Shown piece after piece: positions 2,902-48,848 of a stretch of DNA of 64,000 bases (position 1 is its first letter; each line of letters opens with the position of its first letter). Both the position numbers and the translations under genes were made by a program. The DNA is from Alphaproteobacteria bacterium (GTDB lineage Bacteria; Pseudomonadota; Alphaproteobacteria; Rs-D84). Under the pieces are notes generated by a model. It did not search any database and was not told the DNA's origin. It was given only the letters and a program-made list of their open reading frames with translations. The stretch is from NCBI GenBank assembly GCA_017463185.1, contig JAFTPS010000013.1, positions 3,826-67,825 on the forward strand, read 5' to 3'.

Positions 2902-2958
2902 AATTTCACCTTGCGAATGCATGAATACTGGTATATCATTGCCGCATAAGGAAACTGA

Positions 2959-2981
2959 GTGGTTAGTGTAAGTGGTTAGTG
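2959..2981. repeat. Left inverted repeat of the four-helix-bundle gene cassette (GTGGTTAGTG-type)
   Basis: gtggttagtgtaagtggttagtg matches the reverse complement of 3339-3361 at 22 of 23 positions. Confidence 0.85.
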
Positions 2982-2997
2982 GCTAGTGGTGGAATAC

Positions 2998-3363
2998 ATG
3001 AAATCAGTCAAGGATTTAAAAGTTTATCAATGTGGATTTAAATTGACGATTGATGTATATAGGGTTACGGCTTGCTTTCCACCGAATGAACAATTTGGGT
3101 TAGTTTCACAGATGCGTAGGGCCGCTGTGTCTGTATGTTCTAATTTAGCAGAAGGGGCGGCGCGTGGAACAACGAAAGAGTATTTGCATTTTGTGTATGT
3201 AGCAAAAGGCTCGGCTGCGGAACTGGAAGCACAAATAGATTTAGCGACTGCATTAGGGTTTGTTGAAAAGGCCAAAGCAGGACAAATACATAAAGATATA
3301 ACGGAAGTTTTAAGAATGTTATCAGGATTGATTCATTCACTAACCACTAACACTAACCACTAA
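2998..3363 (+). CDS. Four-helix-bundle protein (23S rRNA intervening-sequence protein family)
   Basis: LKVYQ..F.L...VY.....[23 protein letters not shown]...GTTKEYLHF....GSAAELEAQ is the family signature. ATG at 2998 (the track start at 2986 is GTG). Confidence 0.8.
3339..3361. repeat. Right inverted repeat of the four-helix-bundle gene cassette
   Basis: cactaaccactaacactaaccac. It encodes the protein C-terminus (LTTNTNH) and pairs with 2959-2981. Confidence 0.85.
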
Positions 3364-3377
3364 CAACTGGTAATAAC

Positions 3378-8419: not shown

Positions 8420-8875
8420 TTATTTCTGATTTTCTTTCAGTCTGTAAATTATATTGAATAATTGTGCGGAATTGTCGGTCGTTTGAATTTTGCCAGTAAT
8501 ACGTTTTTCTGCCATATCTAGTGTCTTAAAGAATTTAGGTGAACGCACGCGTGTAATAAAGCGTTTCAAATCGCATTGTGTTTTATCCAATGCGCTGCCG
8601 ACTTCGTGTTTTGTTCTTTCGTCCAATAAACTGTGTTGCGGATTTAGTGATGTGCCGCGTTGCAGGCTAATATGACCCTTATATTTCATTTTTGGATATG
8701 TTCCAATTTTATATGGTGCTTTACAGGTTGCGCTGATAATCAGGCAATATGGGTAATCGGCCAGACCGCGTTTTGTAAATGTGTAAAGAATATCGTCGTT
8801 GCTGATATATGCGTCGGCTTGTGTGTCTTTGTCCATGATAAATGCGATTGCGATATCATAAATTTCGTTTTTCAT
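8420..8875 (-). CDS. Hypothetical protein
   Basis: 151 aa, RBS aagagg upstream of the ATG. No recognisable motif. Confidence 0.5.
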   Translation of the reverse strand: MKNEIYDIAIAFIMDKDTQADAYISNDDILYTFTKRGLADYPYCLIISATCKAPYKIGTYPKMKYKGHISLQRGTSLNPQHSLLDERTKHEVGSALDKTQCDLKRFITRVRSPKFFKTLDMAEKRITGKIQTTDNSAQLFNIIYRLKENQK

Positions 8876-8959: not shown

Positions 8960-9250
8960 TTCCTTGTTTTTATGGGGCGGGTTTGGTAGAATTTTCTGTG
9001 AAACCATCAGGGATTGTGGTTTCGGGGCCTTAGAAAGCCTACTTTGCGCCGACACGGTGTTTGTGTCGTTCCCTACGCATAGTATGGGGCGCATTGTGCG
9101 CCATTTATTATGCACTAATCACCCGGACCTTTGTGTCGGGGTGCCGCCGGTGTATGCAACAGGGCGCATGCGCCCAAAGACCGGCGGGAACATGCAAAGT
9201 GTTTTTCTAACACCCCGACCGTCAATTCCATTGGCGGTTTTGTTTTTTAT
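8960..9250 (+). ncRNA. Candidate structured RNA (sRNA, or riboswitch-like leader of the VirB2-like gene)
   Basis: GC-rich island in AT-rich spacer. Hairpins at 9000-9023, 9050-9068, 9088-9102. Nested helices 9135-9143/9211-9219, 9144-9151/9180-9187 and 9162-9175. Intrinsic terminator 9218-9248 just before the RBS at 9255. Confidence 0.35.
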
Positions 9251-9265: not shown

Positions 9266-9628
9266 ATGAAATGTCAAAAAATGCTTGTGGGACTGGCGTT
9301 ATCATTGGTTGTGATACCGGCGTTTGCCGCGGCGAATATTGATGGACTATGTGGACTGATTGCCGAAATGCAGGGAATTTTCAAAATTCTGCGGACATTG
9401 GCATTCGCGGGGGCGGGATTTATTCTGGCCAAATATGCGTGGGAAGCAATCAGTACTGGTAAATTAAATGGTGAAGCAGAACTTATCAAAGGGGTACAGA
9501 AAACAGGTATTCCAATGCTGGTGGGGCTAATTTTGCTGTTTATGATTGGCACTATATTACAGGTGCTAAGTTCTGCTTCTGGGGCCAGTGTGTTGGGGTG
9601 CAGTGACGAGTTGTTTCAAGGATGGTAA
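9266..9628 (+). CDS. Small membrane protein, TrbC/VirB2 pilin-like architecture
   Basis: 120 aa. Signal peptide (LALSLVVIPAFAAA) plus two hydrophobic helices separated by a short polar loop, as in T4SS pilins. Assignment rests on architecture only. Confidence 0.35.
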   Translation: MKCQKMLVGLALSLVVIPAFAAANIDGLCGLIAEMQGIFKILRTLAFAGAGFILAKYAWEAISTGKLNGEAELIKGVQKTGIPMLVGLILLFMIGTILQVLSSASGASVLGCSDELFQGW

Positions 9629-9739: not shown

Positions 9740-9767
9740 AAATCCCGCCATTGGCGGGATTTTTTTC
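9738..9767 (+). terminator. Rho-independent terminator
   Basis: aaaaATCCCGCCattGGCGGGATttttttt. The hairpin is identical to the one at 32811-32837. Confidence 0.85.
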
Positions 9768-9768
9768 A

Positions 9769-9835
9769 GTGGTTAGTGTAAGTGGTTAGTGAATAGTGGC
9801 GGAATACATAAAAAGTTATTAGTGTTTTGTTATTA
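9769..9835 (+). repeat. Solo remnant of the four-helix-bundle cassette 5' end
   Basis: agtggttagtgtaagtggttagtgaatagtggcggaatacataaaaag aligns with 2958-3004, but ATG has become ATA and the ORF is gone. Confidence 0.75.
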
Positions 9836-9892
9836 TAATGTGTGATACGACCATCAACACTGGCATAAAATTAAAATCGCCACAGGGGCGAT
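9828..9892. repeat. Direct repeat copy 1 (about 65 bp, includes a terminator hairpin)
   Basis: The 49-bp core gatacgaccatcaacactggcataaaattaaaatcgccacaggggcgat is identical to 10001-10049. Flanks are partly conserved. Confidence 0.9.
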
Positions 9893-9990: not shown

Positions 9991-10049
9991 CATAATGTAT
10001 GATACGACCATCAACACTGGCATAAAATTAAAATCGCCACAGGGGCGAT
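9984..10049. repeat. Direct repeat copy 2
   Basis: See 9828-9892. This copy lies directly downstream of tRNA-Pro on the minus strand. Confidence 0.9.
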
Positions 10050-10059
10050 TTGAATTTTA

Positions 10060-10136
<77 letters not shown>

Positions 10137-13125: not shown

Positions 13126-13382
13126 AAAACCGTCACTTGATTAAAAATAATAATTATTAAAAAGTATAACGAATTATAACAAATCTAAAAAATACCCAGG
13201 AAATCTGGGCGTTTGAAAATATTATGGGATTAAAATCCGATTCGCGTACGCGTGGGATAGTATCATATTTTTTTGGGTTTTGCAAAAATCTTTGGTGTTG
13301 CGGGCGGGATTTTGGTCCTGGTAAAATTGTAATAACTAGACCAAAAGCATCTAGTGGTTTAATCTTAACGAAAGGAAAGAAT

Positions 13383-14339: not shown

Positions 14340-14972
14340 TTAATTTGTATAATAGCAATTGTTGCTGAATTCATATGTGCCGCTGGTATCTTGTATGGAT
14401 TGTGCGGATGGTATATAGCAGGAAGTTATTGAAGTCGCGCCACCAGATGCGGTTGTGCCATATACATCGCCGGATGATGGACAACGTGCACAAGTATTGC
14501 CGTTTTTATAATAGCCTTGGTTGCAACTAAATGTTGTGCCGCCATCACAGGTTGCGTTACTGGGGCAAATTGTGCAGCCTGTGGATGAAGATGTGGGGCT
14601 GCCATAATATCCGGTTTCGCAGGTGTAATCCTGTATTGTGTATGTGGTGCATTCGGCTGGTGTGTTGTAATCCTCTTTTTCTGGGCAGGTCGTAAATTCA
14701 ATTACGCGCCAGTTTGATGTTATAACATGTGAAGAATAATTAGTTGTTGTGGATGTTGGAACACCGCGATAGGGTAGCCATTCTTCACATTCCATCATAC
14801 ATGGGTCGTCCATTGTATACCAACCGCCTGAATCATTGATTGGTTGGCAGGCGCTGACGTCTACATAAGCGCACGGATTTATTGGGTAAAGGTTGGAATA
14901 TTGAGCGTATATGTTTTTTGTTGTAATACAGGCAATGCAAATATACGCACTTGTGATAATTTTTTTGTTCAT
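14340..14972 (-). CDS. Secreted Cys-rich protein with furin/ephrin-receptor-like (CxxGYY...CxxCP) repeats
   Basis: 210 aa, RBS aggag, signal-like N-terminus. CETGYYGSPTSSSTGCTICPSNATCDGGTTFSCNQGYYKNGNTCARCPSSG. Confidence 0.7.
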   Translation of the reverse strand: MNKKIITSAYICIACITTKNIYAQYSNLYPINPCAYVDVSACQPINDSGGWYTMDDPCMMECEEWLPYRGVPTSTTTNYSSHVITSNWRVIEFTTCPEKEDYNTPAECTTYTIQDYTCETGYYGSPTSSSTGCTICPSNATCDGGTTFSCNQGYYKNGNTCARCPSSGDVYGTTASGGATSITSCYIPSAQSIQDTSGTYEFSNNCYYTN

Positions 14973-15218
14973 TTGTTCTATCTCCTGTGTTTTTTGATTA
15001 AAAGCAAAAAACCGTCAATTTTTTTGACGGTCAGGAGGTTAGTAACAATCCATAGAATTGCGTGCTTATTTATGTATATCGCAACCCTCCTGACCGATGG
15101 TCAGGAGATTTTTTCGTCACAGACAATAAAAAAAGACGCGTTTTTGCGCCATTTTAAGTCTTGTTTGTTGACGCTATGGCAGAGGTTACTACGCCTCATC
15201 GTCAGAATACCTGACGAC
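14973..15218 (-). promoter_or_regulatory. Conserved structured 5' leader, copy A (homolog of 44365-44603)
   Basis: The minus-strand core at 15005-15115 is about four-fifths identical by eye to 44477-44588. It has a CUCCUGACC-nnn-GGUCAGGAG hairpin, a downstream CCUCCUGACCGUC, and a terminator hairpin with a U-run. Confidence 0.55.
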
Positions 15219-15224
15219 GTTTCT

Positions 15225-15253
15225 ATTCTATCAAATCAAGTTTTTTTATGCAA
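15225..15253 (-). promoter_or_regulatory. Sigma70-like promoter (TTGCAT-17-TAGAAT) for leader copy A
   Basis: Minus strand ttgcat at 15253-15248 and tagaat at 15230-15225. Confidence 0.5.
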
Positions 15254-31467: not shown

Positions 31468-31623
31468 GTCCGTGGGACGATAAACAAAGATTTGACTTTT
31501 GTCGTGTTTTGTATAAAATTATGCGGCAAAATAAAAATAGCCCACGATAAAAAAATCTTGGGTTTGGGTATCGGGGTGCGGGTGGACTCGCGCTTCGCAG
31601 TTAAATAAAAAGGAAAATAAAAA

Positions 31624-32001
31624 ATGGCACGTATAGCAGGTGTTAACATTCCGACAGAAAAGCGCATTGAAATTGCGTTGCAATACATTCACGGTATTGG
31701 GCCAGCAAAAGCGGCACAAATTTGTGAAGCGTTGAAATTAAAAGACGGTTTGCGCGCAAAAGATTTGACGGACGCGGATGTTATCAAAATTTCTAATTAC
31801 ATAGAAGAAAACTTTAAAGTAGAAGGTGATGTTCGTCGTGAAGTTACAATGAACATTAAACGTCTGCAGGATTTGAAAACCTATCGCGGTATTCGTCATC
31901 GTAACCGTTTGCCGGTTCGTGGTCAGCGTACACAGACAAATGCTCGTACCCGCAAGGGCAAGCGCGTGGTAGTCGCTGGTTCCGCAACCAAGGGGAAATA
32001 A
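31624..32001 (+). CDS. rpsM: 30S ribosomal protein S13
   Basis: [26 protein letters not shown]...[22 protein letters not shown]. Confidence 0.98.
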
Positions 32002-32597: not shown

Positions 32598-32706
32598 TAT
32601 TCTTTTTTGTCATTGCGAGCGAACGCGCCTGCCATACGAAGCCTTGGCGTAGTGTGGTGGCAAACCAGTAAATTAGTGTAAGTTGTTAGTGGATAGTGTT
32701 GAAATT
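32598..32706 (+). repeat. Degenerate remnant of the four-helix-bundle cassette 5' region
   Basis: gtcattgcgagcgaa...taaattagtgtaagttgttagtggatagtgttgaaat is similar to 2936-2996. No ORF. Confidence 0.5.
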
Positions 32707-32810
32707 CCGGGGTGGGGGGGGGAAAAGATAGAAATACCAATCCCCCACCCAGGTTTTACTAATTCACTGTCGTTCATAAGTAAAACCGTCCCGCCCCACA
32801 AGGGGGCAGG

Positions 32811-48341: not shown

Positions 48342-48629
48342 CGACTCCCACATAAAAGACCACTCAACAAAGTGAGTGGTCGGGAGTTGAACAGTTCAAG
48401 AACAGAACTCCGTGCTTTCGGGATAAATCCCTATGGTATGGCAACGGCATCCCGACCAGAGTCGGGACATTAGAAGTTAAAGTTCTTGGGTGTTCAAACC
48501 CGTTTACACTTATAATGTCGCTTGTGCAATAAAATGCACAAGAACATTCTACTATAAAATATTAAAAAATCACCCCTGACATATTTTCTATTTTTATCAA
48601 GATTTCTTTGGTTTTTATTCATATAAAGT

Positions 48630-48658
48630 TTGTTTTTACCCCGTTTTTATGATACAAT
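48630..48658 (+). promoter_or_regulatory. Promoter (TTGTTT-17-TACAAT with extended -10 TG)
   Basis: ttgttt at 48630-48635, tgatacaat at 48650-48658. Confidence 0.5.
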
Positions 48659-48663
48659 ATTTG

Positions 48664-48848
48664 CCGACACAGGCGACTGTGTTGGGCGTTACAACCCATA
48701 ACATTAGGTGTCCGTGGGGACACAAAAAACCTCTAACCTTTGGTTGGAGGGCGGCGAATATACCGAATAAGCCCGCTATTTCCTAATGTTATAGTTGTAA
48801 ACCTCCAACCACCAAAGAATGCCTGTGTGGAATTAAACGGAGAGTAGC
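48664..48848 (+). promoter_or_regulatory. Highly structured leader RNA (multi-helix junction), riboswitch or attenuator candidate
   Basis: 9-bp hairpin with GCGA tetraloop (48664-48685). About 20-bp closing helix 48688-48708/48782-48802 enclosing three hairpins. Downstream ACCUCCAACC (48801-48810) can alternatively pair with 48742-48751. Confidence 0.4.

Follow-up and report, generated by a model that had tools for sequence, protein, structure and literature searches.

The window analysed here, a stretch of 64,000 nucleotides (nt) of contig JAFTPS010000013.1 (assembly GCA_017463185.1, positions 3,826 to 67,825), comes from an alphaproteobacterium of Rs-D84, the uncultured order that includes Enterousia, with genomes of 0.75-1.0 Mb (PMC12306168). 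Its minus strand carries a gene (14340-14972, ATG at 14972) for a Cys-rich orphan protein of 210 amino acids (aa) with a signal peptide, which matched no Pfam or NCBIfam family, and between this gene and the divergent rpsL-rpsG-fusA-tuf cluster lies the structured leader that is the subject of this work (copy A, 15006-15253, minus strand, delimited by reading the sequence). A preliminary description, made from the letters of the DNA, had paired copy A with a second leader on the plus strand (copy B, 44330-44586), and had proposed that the two share one layout and form an attenuator-like platform; all the parts that it listed were found, in the same order in both copies.

Copy A begins with a putative promoter in which the -35 element TTGCAT (15248-15253) and the -10 element TAGAAT (15225-15230), both read from the sequence on the minus strand, are separated by 17 nt. 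A consensus promoter scan did not flag it because the -35 element matches TTGACA at only 3 of 6 positions. There follow, on the same strand, a 5'-terminal hairpin, P1 (CGUCGUCAG / CUGACGAUG, 15197-15219), and, within 15180-15197, the segment Y (GAGGC), the 5' strand of P2b (UAGUAAC) and J2/3 (CUCUG). The 5' strand of P3 (CCAUAG, 15174-15179) leads into P4 (CGUCA, 15169-15173, with UGACG, 15115-15119), which encloses P5, a terminator-like hairpin with a run of seven U residues (GGCGCAAAAACGCGUCUUUUUUU, 15128-15150) that was flagged by the terminator scan. An A-rich linker (15108-15114) is followed by hairpin P6, which consists of 5'X (CUCCUGACC, 15099-15107), the loop AUC and X' (GGUCAGGAGG, 15086-15095), and by hairpin P7 with its AU-rich loop (15058-15084). 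The remainder contains GCAAU (15057-15061), the 3' strand of P3 (CUAUGG, 15050-15055), AUUGU (15045-15049), the 3' strand of P2b (GUUACUA, 15040-15046), 3'X (CCUCCUGACC, 15029-15038) and, overlapping 3'X, the intrinsic terminator T2 (GACCGUC-aaaaaaauu-GACGGUUUUUU, with the GACGGU stem arm and six U residues, 15006-15032). T2 was flagged by the terminator scan and has the form of an intrinsic (Rho-independent) terminator, with nine pairs (15032-15010) followed by UUUUGCUUUU. Two of the segments have a choice of partner: Y can pair with CCUC of 3'X (P2a) or locally with J2/3 (P2alt), and GCAAU can pair with AUUGU (P3alt) as an alternative to P3. The gene's Shine-Dalgarno (SD) sequence, CAGGAG, lies at 14982-14987 on the minus strand, and the start codon follows T2 at a distance of only 33 nt, which leaves too little space for a promoter of the gene's own.

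Copy B, which scored 171.8 bits with the covariance model described below, has a near-consensus promoter (TTGAAA-17-TATAAT, 11 of 12 matches), in agreement with the earlier assignment of a sigma70 promoter to each leader. On the plus strand, P1 is at 44365-44386, Y at 44387-44391, 5'X at 44481-44489, X' at 44493-44502, 3'X at 44553-44562 and T2 at 44559-44586; this T2 was not flagged by the simple terminator scan, yet it aligned to the same columns as the other T2 hairpins. The operon behind copy B encodes a secreted peptide of 67 aa (44604-44807) and a secreted protein of 597 aa composed of 31-aa repeats (44829-46622), and neither product matched a Pfam or NCBIfam family. The repeat region of the larger protein (45484-46381) is made of units of about 31 aa (93 nt) with the consensus ..CSGLTGSIPENLFAGI.GAP...MF..TF, and the protein looks like a leucine-rich-repeat surface protein, though unmatched in these databases.

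The preliminary description had judged a core of the two leaders to be about four-fifths identical, and alignment gave 85.7% identity from 5'X to 3'X and 79.4% from the linker to the end of the terminator, against a mean of 48.8% and a maximum of 55.8% in shuffled controls. The 22-nt palindrome CTCCTGACCNNNGGTCAGGAGG was found within the window in copies A and B only, and none of 100 shuffles of the window matched it. Upstream of the promoter and at the starts of the coding sequences, identity was 50-53%; the similarity is thus restricted to the leader and is not due to a segmental duplication that carried the gene along, which had been named beforehand as an explanation to be considered. The 5' halves are 58% identical, with compensatory changes, and are structurally homologous in that each pairs with its own 3' half. 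In P2b (UAGUAAC/GUUACUA in copy A, UGAGAAC/GUUCUCA in copy B) and P3 (CCAUAG/CUAUGG and CAACAAG/CUUGUUG, respectively), the letters have changed and the pairing has been kept.

Occurrence of the leader family

The leader matched no known RNA class, as had been supposed from the sequence. In a search of Rfam 15 (4227 models, including T-box, PyrR, S-adenosylmethionine (SAM), cyclic di-GMP (c-di-GMP)-I/II and gut-1), the whole window returned at the gathering threshold only two tRNAs and the Alpha_RBS element, leaving the leader copies unmatched, and copies A and B at E<=10 gave only chance-level matches, the best of which reached 22.6 bits against a cut-off of 52 bits. Eight related loci returned only tRNAs. 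The motif was not described in the full-text literature searched, which returned genome descriptions and unrelated primer matches.

Relatives were collected in three ways. A scan for the hairpin in one genome per species yielded 119 loci, 14 of which carry the full element; all 14 are in Candidatus Enterousia or other gut Alphaproteobacteria metagenome-assembled genomes (MAGs), and the rest are either chance matches or repeats from Chloroflexota with no relation to the leader. The second pattern, built from P2a and P2b only and blind to the hairpin, yielded 1 IMG/VR contig and 82 metagenome loci, 4 of these being chance matches. Finally, a covariance model built from 57 sequences, the kind of search that the preliminary description had proposed, gave 111 matches in the sequences gathered, most of them at 160-224 bits, and the full-length matches were on one strand only. 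Several copies are present per genome in Enterousia/Rs-D84 MAGs, and the leader is also found in gut metagenomes; one 935-kb contig carries at least three leaders and a 278-kb contig carries three. In two sequences, L140 and L178, the P2b and P3 strands are mismatched, and these may be assembly chimeras between copies. A full class-1 leader (classes are defined below) with a gene for a 162-aa Cys-rich secreted protein was also seen at 10387-10602 of L120 (IMGVR_UViG_3300010163_000459), a 12-kb contig catalogued as viral, which may be either a prophage or a piece of an Enterousia genome assigned to viruses in error.

Predicted closed and open folds of the leader RNA

The minimum-free-energy folds of copies A and B correspond to one closed fold, State A, together with T2 (z-scores of -7.6 and -5.0, respectively), in which the 5' half is tied to the 3' half by the long-range helices P2a, P2b and P3. 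Across the family, State A runs from the 5' end through P1, the sequence GAUG, Y (GGGGU), P2b of 7 base pairs (bp), an internal loop (CCGUU opposite GAUU), P3 of 6-8 bp and a junction, with T2 directly after the junction domain; P2a is formed by Y and ACCUC of 3'X. Four helices meet at the junction: P3, P4 with P5, P6 (5'X:X') and P7. P4 (GCGUC../..GACG) encloses the terminator-like P5 in class 1, and the U-run of P5 is kept in class 1 and absent in class 2. The preliminary description had placed a weak hairpin with a U-run ahead of the core; this hairpin is indeed present as P5, but it is nested inside P4 in a 5' half that pairs with the 3' half. The AU-rich loop of P7 (GAAUAU..AAUAAG), the A-rich J4/6 and J7/3 (CACAAUU) are conserved, as is, throughout the alignment, a -10-like (T)ATAAT some 5 nt ahead of P1.

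In the model-based alignment of 101 distinct sequences, 94.4% of 5560 State A cells were paired and 54 of 63 pairs showed double changes, whereas sliding the partner columns by 1-3 positions left 36-48% paired and none of 500 shuffles reached the observed values; a conserved, covarying structure such as a strict definition of a riboswitch asks of an aptamer is thus present. The preliminary description had regarded a lack of further copies and of covariation as fatal to the motif; this covariation and more than 100 copies were found. RNAalifold scored 27 of 47 pairs as covarying. All 8 pairs of P1 had double compensatory changes (99.2% of cells paired), as had 9 of the 12 pairs of P2a and P2b, and four variable positions of P2b were perfectly complementary in 15 of 15 sequences that include 9 variants. 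The compensating variants of P3 number in the dozens, all 5 pairs of P7 covary, and 5 of the 7 pairs of T2 do so, with GGUUUU nearly invariant. The loop of P6 varies from 3 to 12 nt, and its stem covaries between classes. G-U pairs are frequent in P1, P2a and T2, which, together with the one-stranded matches, indicates that the structure acts at the RNA level. Two further pairings were considered and discarded. A pseudoknot of the P1 loop (GUGUU) with RCAC 3' of P7 was dropped after inspection, since the two are complementary but GUAUU loop variants are uncompensated, and a competition of the P7 loop with distal P4 for GUAUU was set aside as AU-rich and indistinguishable from chance.

The open fold, State B, rests on the helix X':3'X, which at 10 bp is one G-C pair longer than P6 and was paired in 97.8% of cells. 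Because 4 nt of 3'X also belong to T2 (15029-15032 in copy A, 44559-44562 in copy B), this conserved alternative helix has a strand in common with the terminator and the two are mutually exclusive, which is the arrangement of a generic terminator/antiterminator. The exclusive pairings first read from the two copies, CUCCUGACC:GGUCAGGAG against GGUCAGGAGG:CCUCCUGACC, therefore hold well beyond them, the local hairpin, the long-range helix and the terminator being kept in more than 100 homologues, and the attenuator-type platform gains support from the concerted changes of 5'X, X' and 3'X between diverged classes. In class 1, 5'X, X' and 3'X are CUCCUGAcc, ggUCAGGAGG and CCUCCUGACC; in class 2, they are CUCCAACC, GGUUGGAGG and CCUCCAACC; and in class 3 (window 9120-9220 and L145b), they are CACCCGGAC, GUCGGGGUG and CACCCCGACC. 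L189 has matched insertions in all three segments (CUCCUGAAC, GGUUCAGGAGG and CCUCCUGAGCC), and in L202b X' is GGUUGGAGU (GGAGU) and 3'X is ACUCCAACC (ACUCC). An A-to-G variant, CCUCCUGGCC, is found in 16 class-1 sequences, with pairing retained as G-U. The AGGAGG that had been noticed in the G-rich half is present, but it is dispensable, since class 3 has GUCGGGGUG instead; SD/anti-SD mimicry (AGGAGG in X', CCUCC in both of the other X segments) was accordingly rejected as an essential feature, the class 3 strands being GUCGGGGUG/CACCCCGAC.

Two further helices are specific to State B. In P3alt, ACAAU and AUUGU, which flank the 3' strand of P3 and are mutually complementary, were paired in 98.9% of cells, and diverged copies have CUAU/AUAG, GAUA/UAUC or GAAUC/GAUUU at these positions. 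P2alt (Y:J2/3) was paired in 97.7%, with the variants GGGU:ACCC in class 1, GAGG:CCUC in copy A and GGAG:CUCC in L139, where the leader at 8794 has GGAGCU as Y, AGCUCC as 3'X and CUCC as J2/3. P3alt overlaps P2b by two nucleotides, and P2b is joined to 3'X by only two nucleotides (AA), so that X':3'X is incompatible with P2b and P3; the helix sets of State A and State B therefore exclude each other. The covariation of the X triad as a set and the maintenance of the two other alternative helices argue that both conformations are under selection. State B is thus supported by the comparative data, which would extend the number of toggles from one to three; P1, the long-range helices between the 5' and 3' halves and the alternative pairings Y:J2/3 and ACAAU:AUUGU are features beyond the preliminary account.

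Comparative analysis thus documents the evolutionary maintenance of both helix sets, of the overlap between T2 and 3'X and of a constant placement relative to promoter and gene. We consider it probable that the transcript of this region is a leader RNA of about 220 nt, promoter-proximal and acting in cis, which controls the secreted-protein gene behind it as a terminator/antiterminator switch with two states; as judged from sequence, the leader most likely sets whether RNA polymerase halts ahead of the genes for secreted Cys-rich proteins or proceeds into them. We class it as a new family of terminator/antiterminator switch, in which both the triple toggle and the regulon are unusual. Several observations weigh against this conclusion. 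Termination at T2 and read-through are both inferred, no effector was identified, and State A is predicted to win over State B by a wide margin. The helices specific to State B vary less than those of State A, and support for X':3'X comes from a handful of independent class-level changes. All family sequences come from one bacterial order, and relatedness therefore inflates the cell counts above the number of independent events. In addition, the class-2 copy in the window (48655-48835) lacks a clear U-tract after T2, and some copies have no open reading frame (ORF) behind them, such as the three tandem copies at L139:8615-9380.

Controlled genes, proposed mechanism and alternatives

Among 76 unique copies, a same-strand gene starts shortly after T2, mostly within 14-60 nt. 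The downstream proteins are diverse and matched no Pfam or NCBIfam family; 61 of the 76 have a signal-peptide-like N-terminus, their median Cys content is 7.4%, and 57 contain more than 4% Cys. This gene set suggests a surface or secretome programme in a gut symbiont of reduced genome. The tandem L139 leaders are three diverged copies, each with its own -10 box, located downstream of clpX and upstream of a small helix-turn-helix-like gene, and could be decaying copies or free-standing RNAs. It was also observed that the SD sequence is CAGGAG in 27 of the 35 class-1 copies that have AGGAG (for example, at 14982-14987 and 44813-44818). CAGGAG is the core of X' and the complement of the CUCCUG found in 5'X and 3'X; of its 11 sites in the window, 6 are in leaders and 2 are SD sequences of leader-controlled genes. 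The shared motif may be an extra translational layer or a remnant of cassette duplication.

The switch would probably work as follows. In State A, P1 would form and P2a (Y paired with CCUCC of 3'X) would stack on the long-range P2b and P3, which lead to the four-way junction of P3, P4 (with P5), P6 and P7; the GACC end of 3'X would be left free, T2 would form, and transcription would stop 14-60 nt before the start codon. In State B, Y would refold onto J2/3 (P2alt), ACAAU would pair with AUUGU around the 3' strand of P3 (P3alt), and X' would leave 5'X and pair with all of 3'X (10 bp), with the result that the 5' arm of T2 would be occupied and RNA polymerase would read through. An effector might capture 5'X and the A-rich linker, or stabilize the junction of X':3'X, P7 and P3alt. 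By nearest-neighbour estimates, which are not measurements, forcing the X':3'X helix costs 7.4 +/- 3.0 kcal/mol once 3'X has emerged and 12.1 +/- 3.2 kcal/mol at full length (n=84), and the minimum-free-energy structures of the growing transcript pass via P2alt and end in State A with T2. Since State A is predicted to be the more stable at the decision point, we infer that termination is the default state, in which case read-through would need an effector that favours State B. A dedicated RNA-binding factor and a small-molecule signal seem about equally likely in this role, neither being more than a possibility at present.

A protein or small RNA (sRNA) acting in trans, in the manner of PyrR, of BglG at its ribonucleic antiterminator (BglG-RAT) or of LoaP, might bind the leader and drive State B or processive read-through, plausibly at 5'X with the A-rich linker, at the P7 loop or at the X':3'X helix; we hold this as a tentative possibility. 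It accords with the predicted default of termination and with the succession of an anti-antiterminator (P6), an antiterminator (X':3'X) and a terminator (T2), which is the logic of pyr leaders. State B would expose the A-rich linker and 5'X as single strands, the P7 loop GAAUAU..AAUAAG is conserved in State A and State B alike, and many unrelated genes could be brought into one regulon by a single factor; however, neither a candidate protein or sRNA nor an Rfam match to a protein-binding leader was obtained, and the X sequences differ by class, so that a sequence-specific partner would need to differ too. Binding of a metabolite or second messenger, with the State A junction (P3/P4/P6/P7, with the conserved J7/3, J4/6 and P7 loop) or the State B junction as the aptamer, appears somewhat unlikely. 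The fold is large, multi-helical and covarying, has an expression platform and is as elaborate as many aptamers, and its many copies stand ahead of genes for surface or secreted proteins, a distribution also seen for riboswitches that bind c-di-GMP and cyclic GMP-AMP (cGAMP). A reduced genome of 0.75-1.0 Mb (PMC12306168) would moreover favour regulation at the RNA level. Nevertheless, pairing in State B accounts for most of the conserved nucleotides that State A leaves unpaired, so that few remain for a pocket; in class 3 the X triad and the P7 loop have other sequences although the toggle architecture is retained, which would be unusual for a single ligand pocket; and the closing helices P2a, P2b and P3, about 19 bp in all, should allow State A to form without a ligand. 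The sequence thus weighs weakly against the binding of a small ligand.

The remaining explanations fit less well. If the family were a stand-alone, trans-acting sRNA of about 220 nt ending at T2, with the genes expressed by incidental read-through, the strong promoter, the predicted efficiency of the terminator and the tandem L139 copies would be accounted for; we regard this as improbable, because nearly every copy is followed after 14-60 nt by the SD and ATG of a same-strand gene, with no space for another promoter, and a conserved alternative helix that masks the terminator arm would be purposeless in a pure sRNA. More improbable still is a dispersed repeat, either a mobile promoter cassette resembling a miniature inverted-repeat transposable element and conserved by recent spread, or a DNA inverted repeat used in recombination. 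The presence of several copies per genome, the private variants common to copies of one genome (such as the P7 loop GAUAUAyAUAAAUAA in copies A and B) and the apparent chimeras L140 and L178 could be taken in its favour, but the differences in P2b and P3 are compensatory rather than random, the G-U pairs and one-strand matches indicate RNA, the orientation to the gene is constant, and terminal repeats and target duplications were not seen. For similar reasons (frequent G-U pairs, one-strand matches and the terminator context), an invertible DNA segment or a DNA cruciform was rejected. Ribosome-mediated attenuation through a leader peptide, to which we give almost no credence, was suggested by the conserved GAUG, with which an ORF (MGC...) begins in 68 of 84 copies. 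It was rejected because the A and U of the AUG are paired in P1 and covary away in the other 16 copies, because there is no upstream SD, and because the length and sequence of the peptide are not conserved beyond the nucleotides fixed by structure; copies A and B, moreover, read the hairpin in different frames.

The terminator/antiterminator switch resembles several known systems in part. Like the S-box (SAM-I) leaders, it is promoter-proximal, is present in several copies per genome and has a multi-helix junction with closing strands that serve as an anti-antiterminator, and its competing antiterminator shares a strand with an intrinsic terminator. Unlike in the S-box, the antiterminator strand X' belongs to an internal hairpin (P6) and not to the closing helix, three toggles are coupled, with Y, X' and ACAAU each having two partners, the genes encode secreted orphan proteins instead of a metabolic pathway, and a ligand may not exist; the leader has no S-box sequence or Rfam similarity. 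The PyrR-dependent pyr attenuators of Bacillus have the same three tiers, in which a hairpin sequesters the 5' strand of an antiterminator that would otherwise mask the terminator. The PyrR binding loop is UCCAGAGAGG, which the G-rich strand GGUCAGGAGG loosely recalls; the present leader is twice as large, has long-range helices, had no PyrR match in Rfam at E<=10 and is not linked to pyrimidine genes, and class 3 lacks the G-rich motif altogether. T-box leaders are likewise long (about 200-250 nt), structured and multi-copy, and choose between a terminator and an antiterminator that is stabilized by a trans-acting RNA, but a T-box sequence or specifier loop was not seen by eye, the Rfam T-box model was unmatched, and the genes are not aminoacyl-tRNA or amino-acid genes. 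With the c-di-GMP (GEMM-I/II) and cGAMP regulons, the analogy is one of regulon type only, namely many copies before surface, adhesion, pilus and secreted genes, and no resemblance is seen in structure or sequence, nor was there an Rfam match.

The chance is somewhat less than even that the leader represents a new class of signal-sensing RNA switch, responsive to a small molecule or a dedicated factor, that coordinates the whole variable repertoire of Cys-rich secreted and surface proteins in Rs-D84. If so, it would be the master control of a host- or partner-interaction programme in uncultured gut Alphaproteobacteria, and a rare case in which covariation documents both conformers of an RNA switch with three toggles. 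A bistable RNA seldom has evolutionary support for both of its conformations, and the family could serve as a clean natural model for coupled strand-exchange switches. It adds to the structured RNAs a large and well-supported family (more than 100 members of about 220 nt) that is absent from Rfam and comes from a lineage known from metagenomes only. Because, in bacteria of about 900 genes, it tags dozens of orphan Cys-rich signal-peptide proteins as one regulon, it points to genes for life in the gut and to a single point of control. Identification of the effector would open the question of what Enterousia-type organisms sense, and any gut metagenome can be searched with the covariance model of the leader to annotate the secretome regulon.

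Other leaders and features of the window

Five related leaders lie within the window. Besides copies A and B, there is a third, diverged copy of class 2 (48655-48835, plus strand), which the covariance model detected at 34 bits (E 5e-9); its 5'X is CCUCUAACC, its X' GGUUGGAGG and its 3'X CCUCCAACC, and an ORF of 89 aa lies downstream. A class-3 relative (8989-9248, plus strand) gave a weak model match of 14.6 bits, and its architecture was read from the sequence: 5'X (CACCCGGAC, 9120-9128), X' (GUCGGGGUG, 9135-9143) and 3'X (CACCCCGACC, 9211-9220) are followed by a terminator. Class 3 was also found at L145:842-1067. The ORF behind the class-3 leader in the window (9266-9628, plus strand) encodes a membrane or secreted protein of 120 aa with a signal peptide and hydrophobic segments; by eye, it is like a VirB2/TrbC-type pilin, and it was unmatched in Pfam and NCBIfam. 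The fifth is a mini leader of about 125 nt (48355-48479, minus strand) with the same X-X'-X logic, for which the covariance model gave 21 bits with only P1 and T2 matching. It has a 5' GUCCCGAC-ucug-GUCGGGAU hairpin and, about 63 nt on, CUCCCGACC, which overlaps with the terminator GACCACUCA..UGAGUGGUCUUUU; a small minus-strand ORF follows this leader, which is divergent from the class-2 copy at 48655. A filter-free scan of the window with the covariance model found no further strong copies, and no leader was found at two other genes for secreted proteins in the window, an autotransporter-like ORF at 39794 and an outer membrane protein-like ORF at 13224.

Some repeats and a known element were also noted. 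An array of coding repeats (57097-58586) consists of 5-6 units of about 216 nt (72 aa) that are 60-73% identical. The dispersed intergenic repeat AGTGGTTAGTGTAAGTGGTTAGTG is found in both orientations at 2958-3003, 3335-3366, 9763-9813 and 32668-32713, and often adjoins a family of terminator hairpins of the form AAAAATCCCGCC..GGCGGGATTTTT. A 58-nt direct duplication with 98% identity (9835-9892 and 9992-10049) lies just upstream of a tRNA gene (10063-10136). The Rfam match to Alpha_RBS, the ribosome-binding-site leader of the alpha operon (31568-31656, plus strand), scored 38 bits, exactly the gathering threshold, and is located upstream of the rpsM-rpsK-rpsD region.

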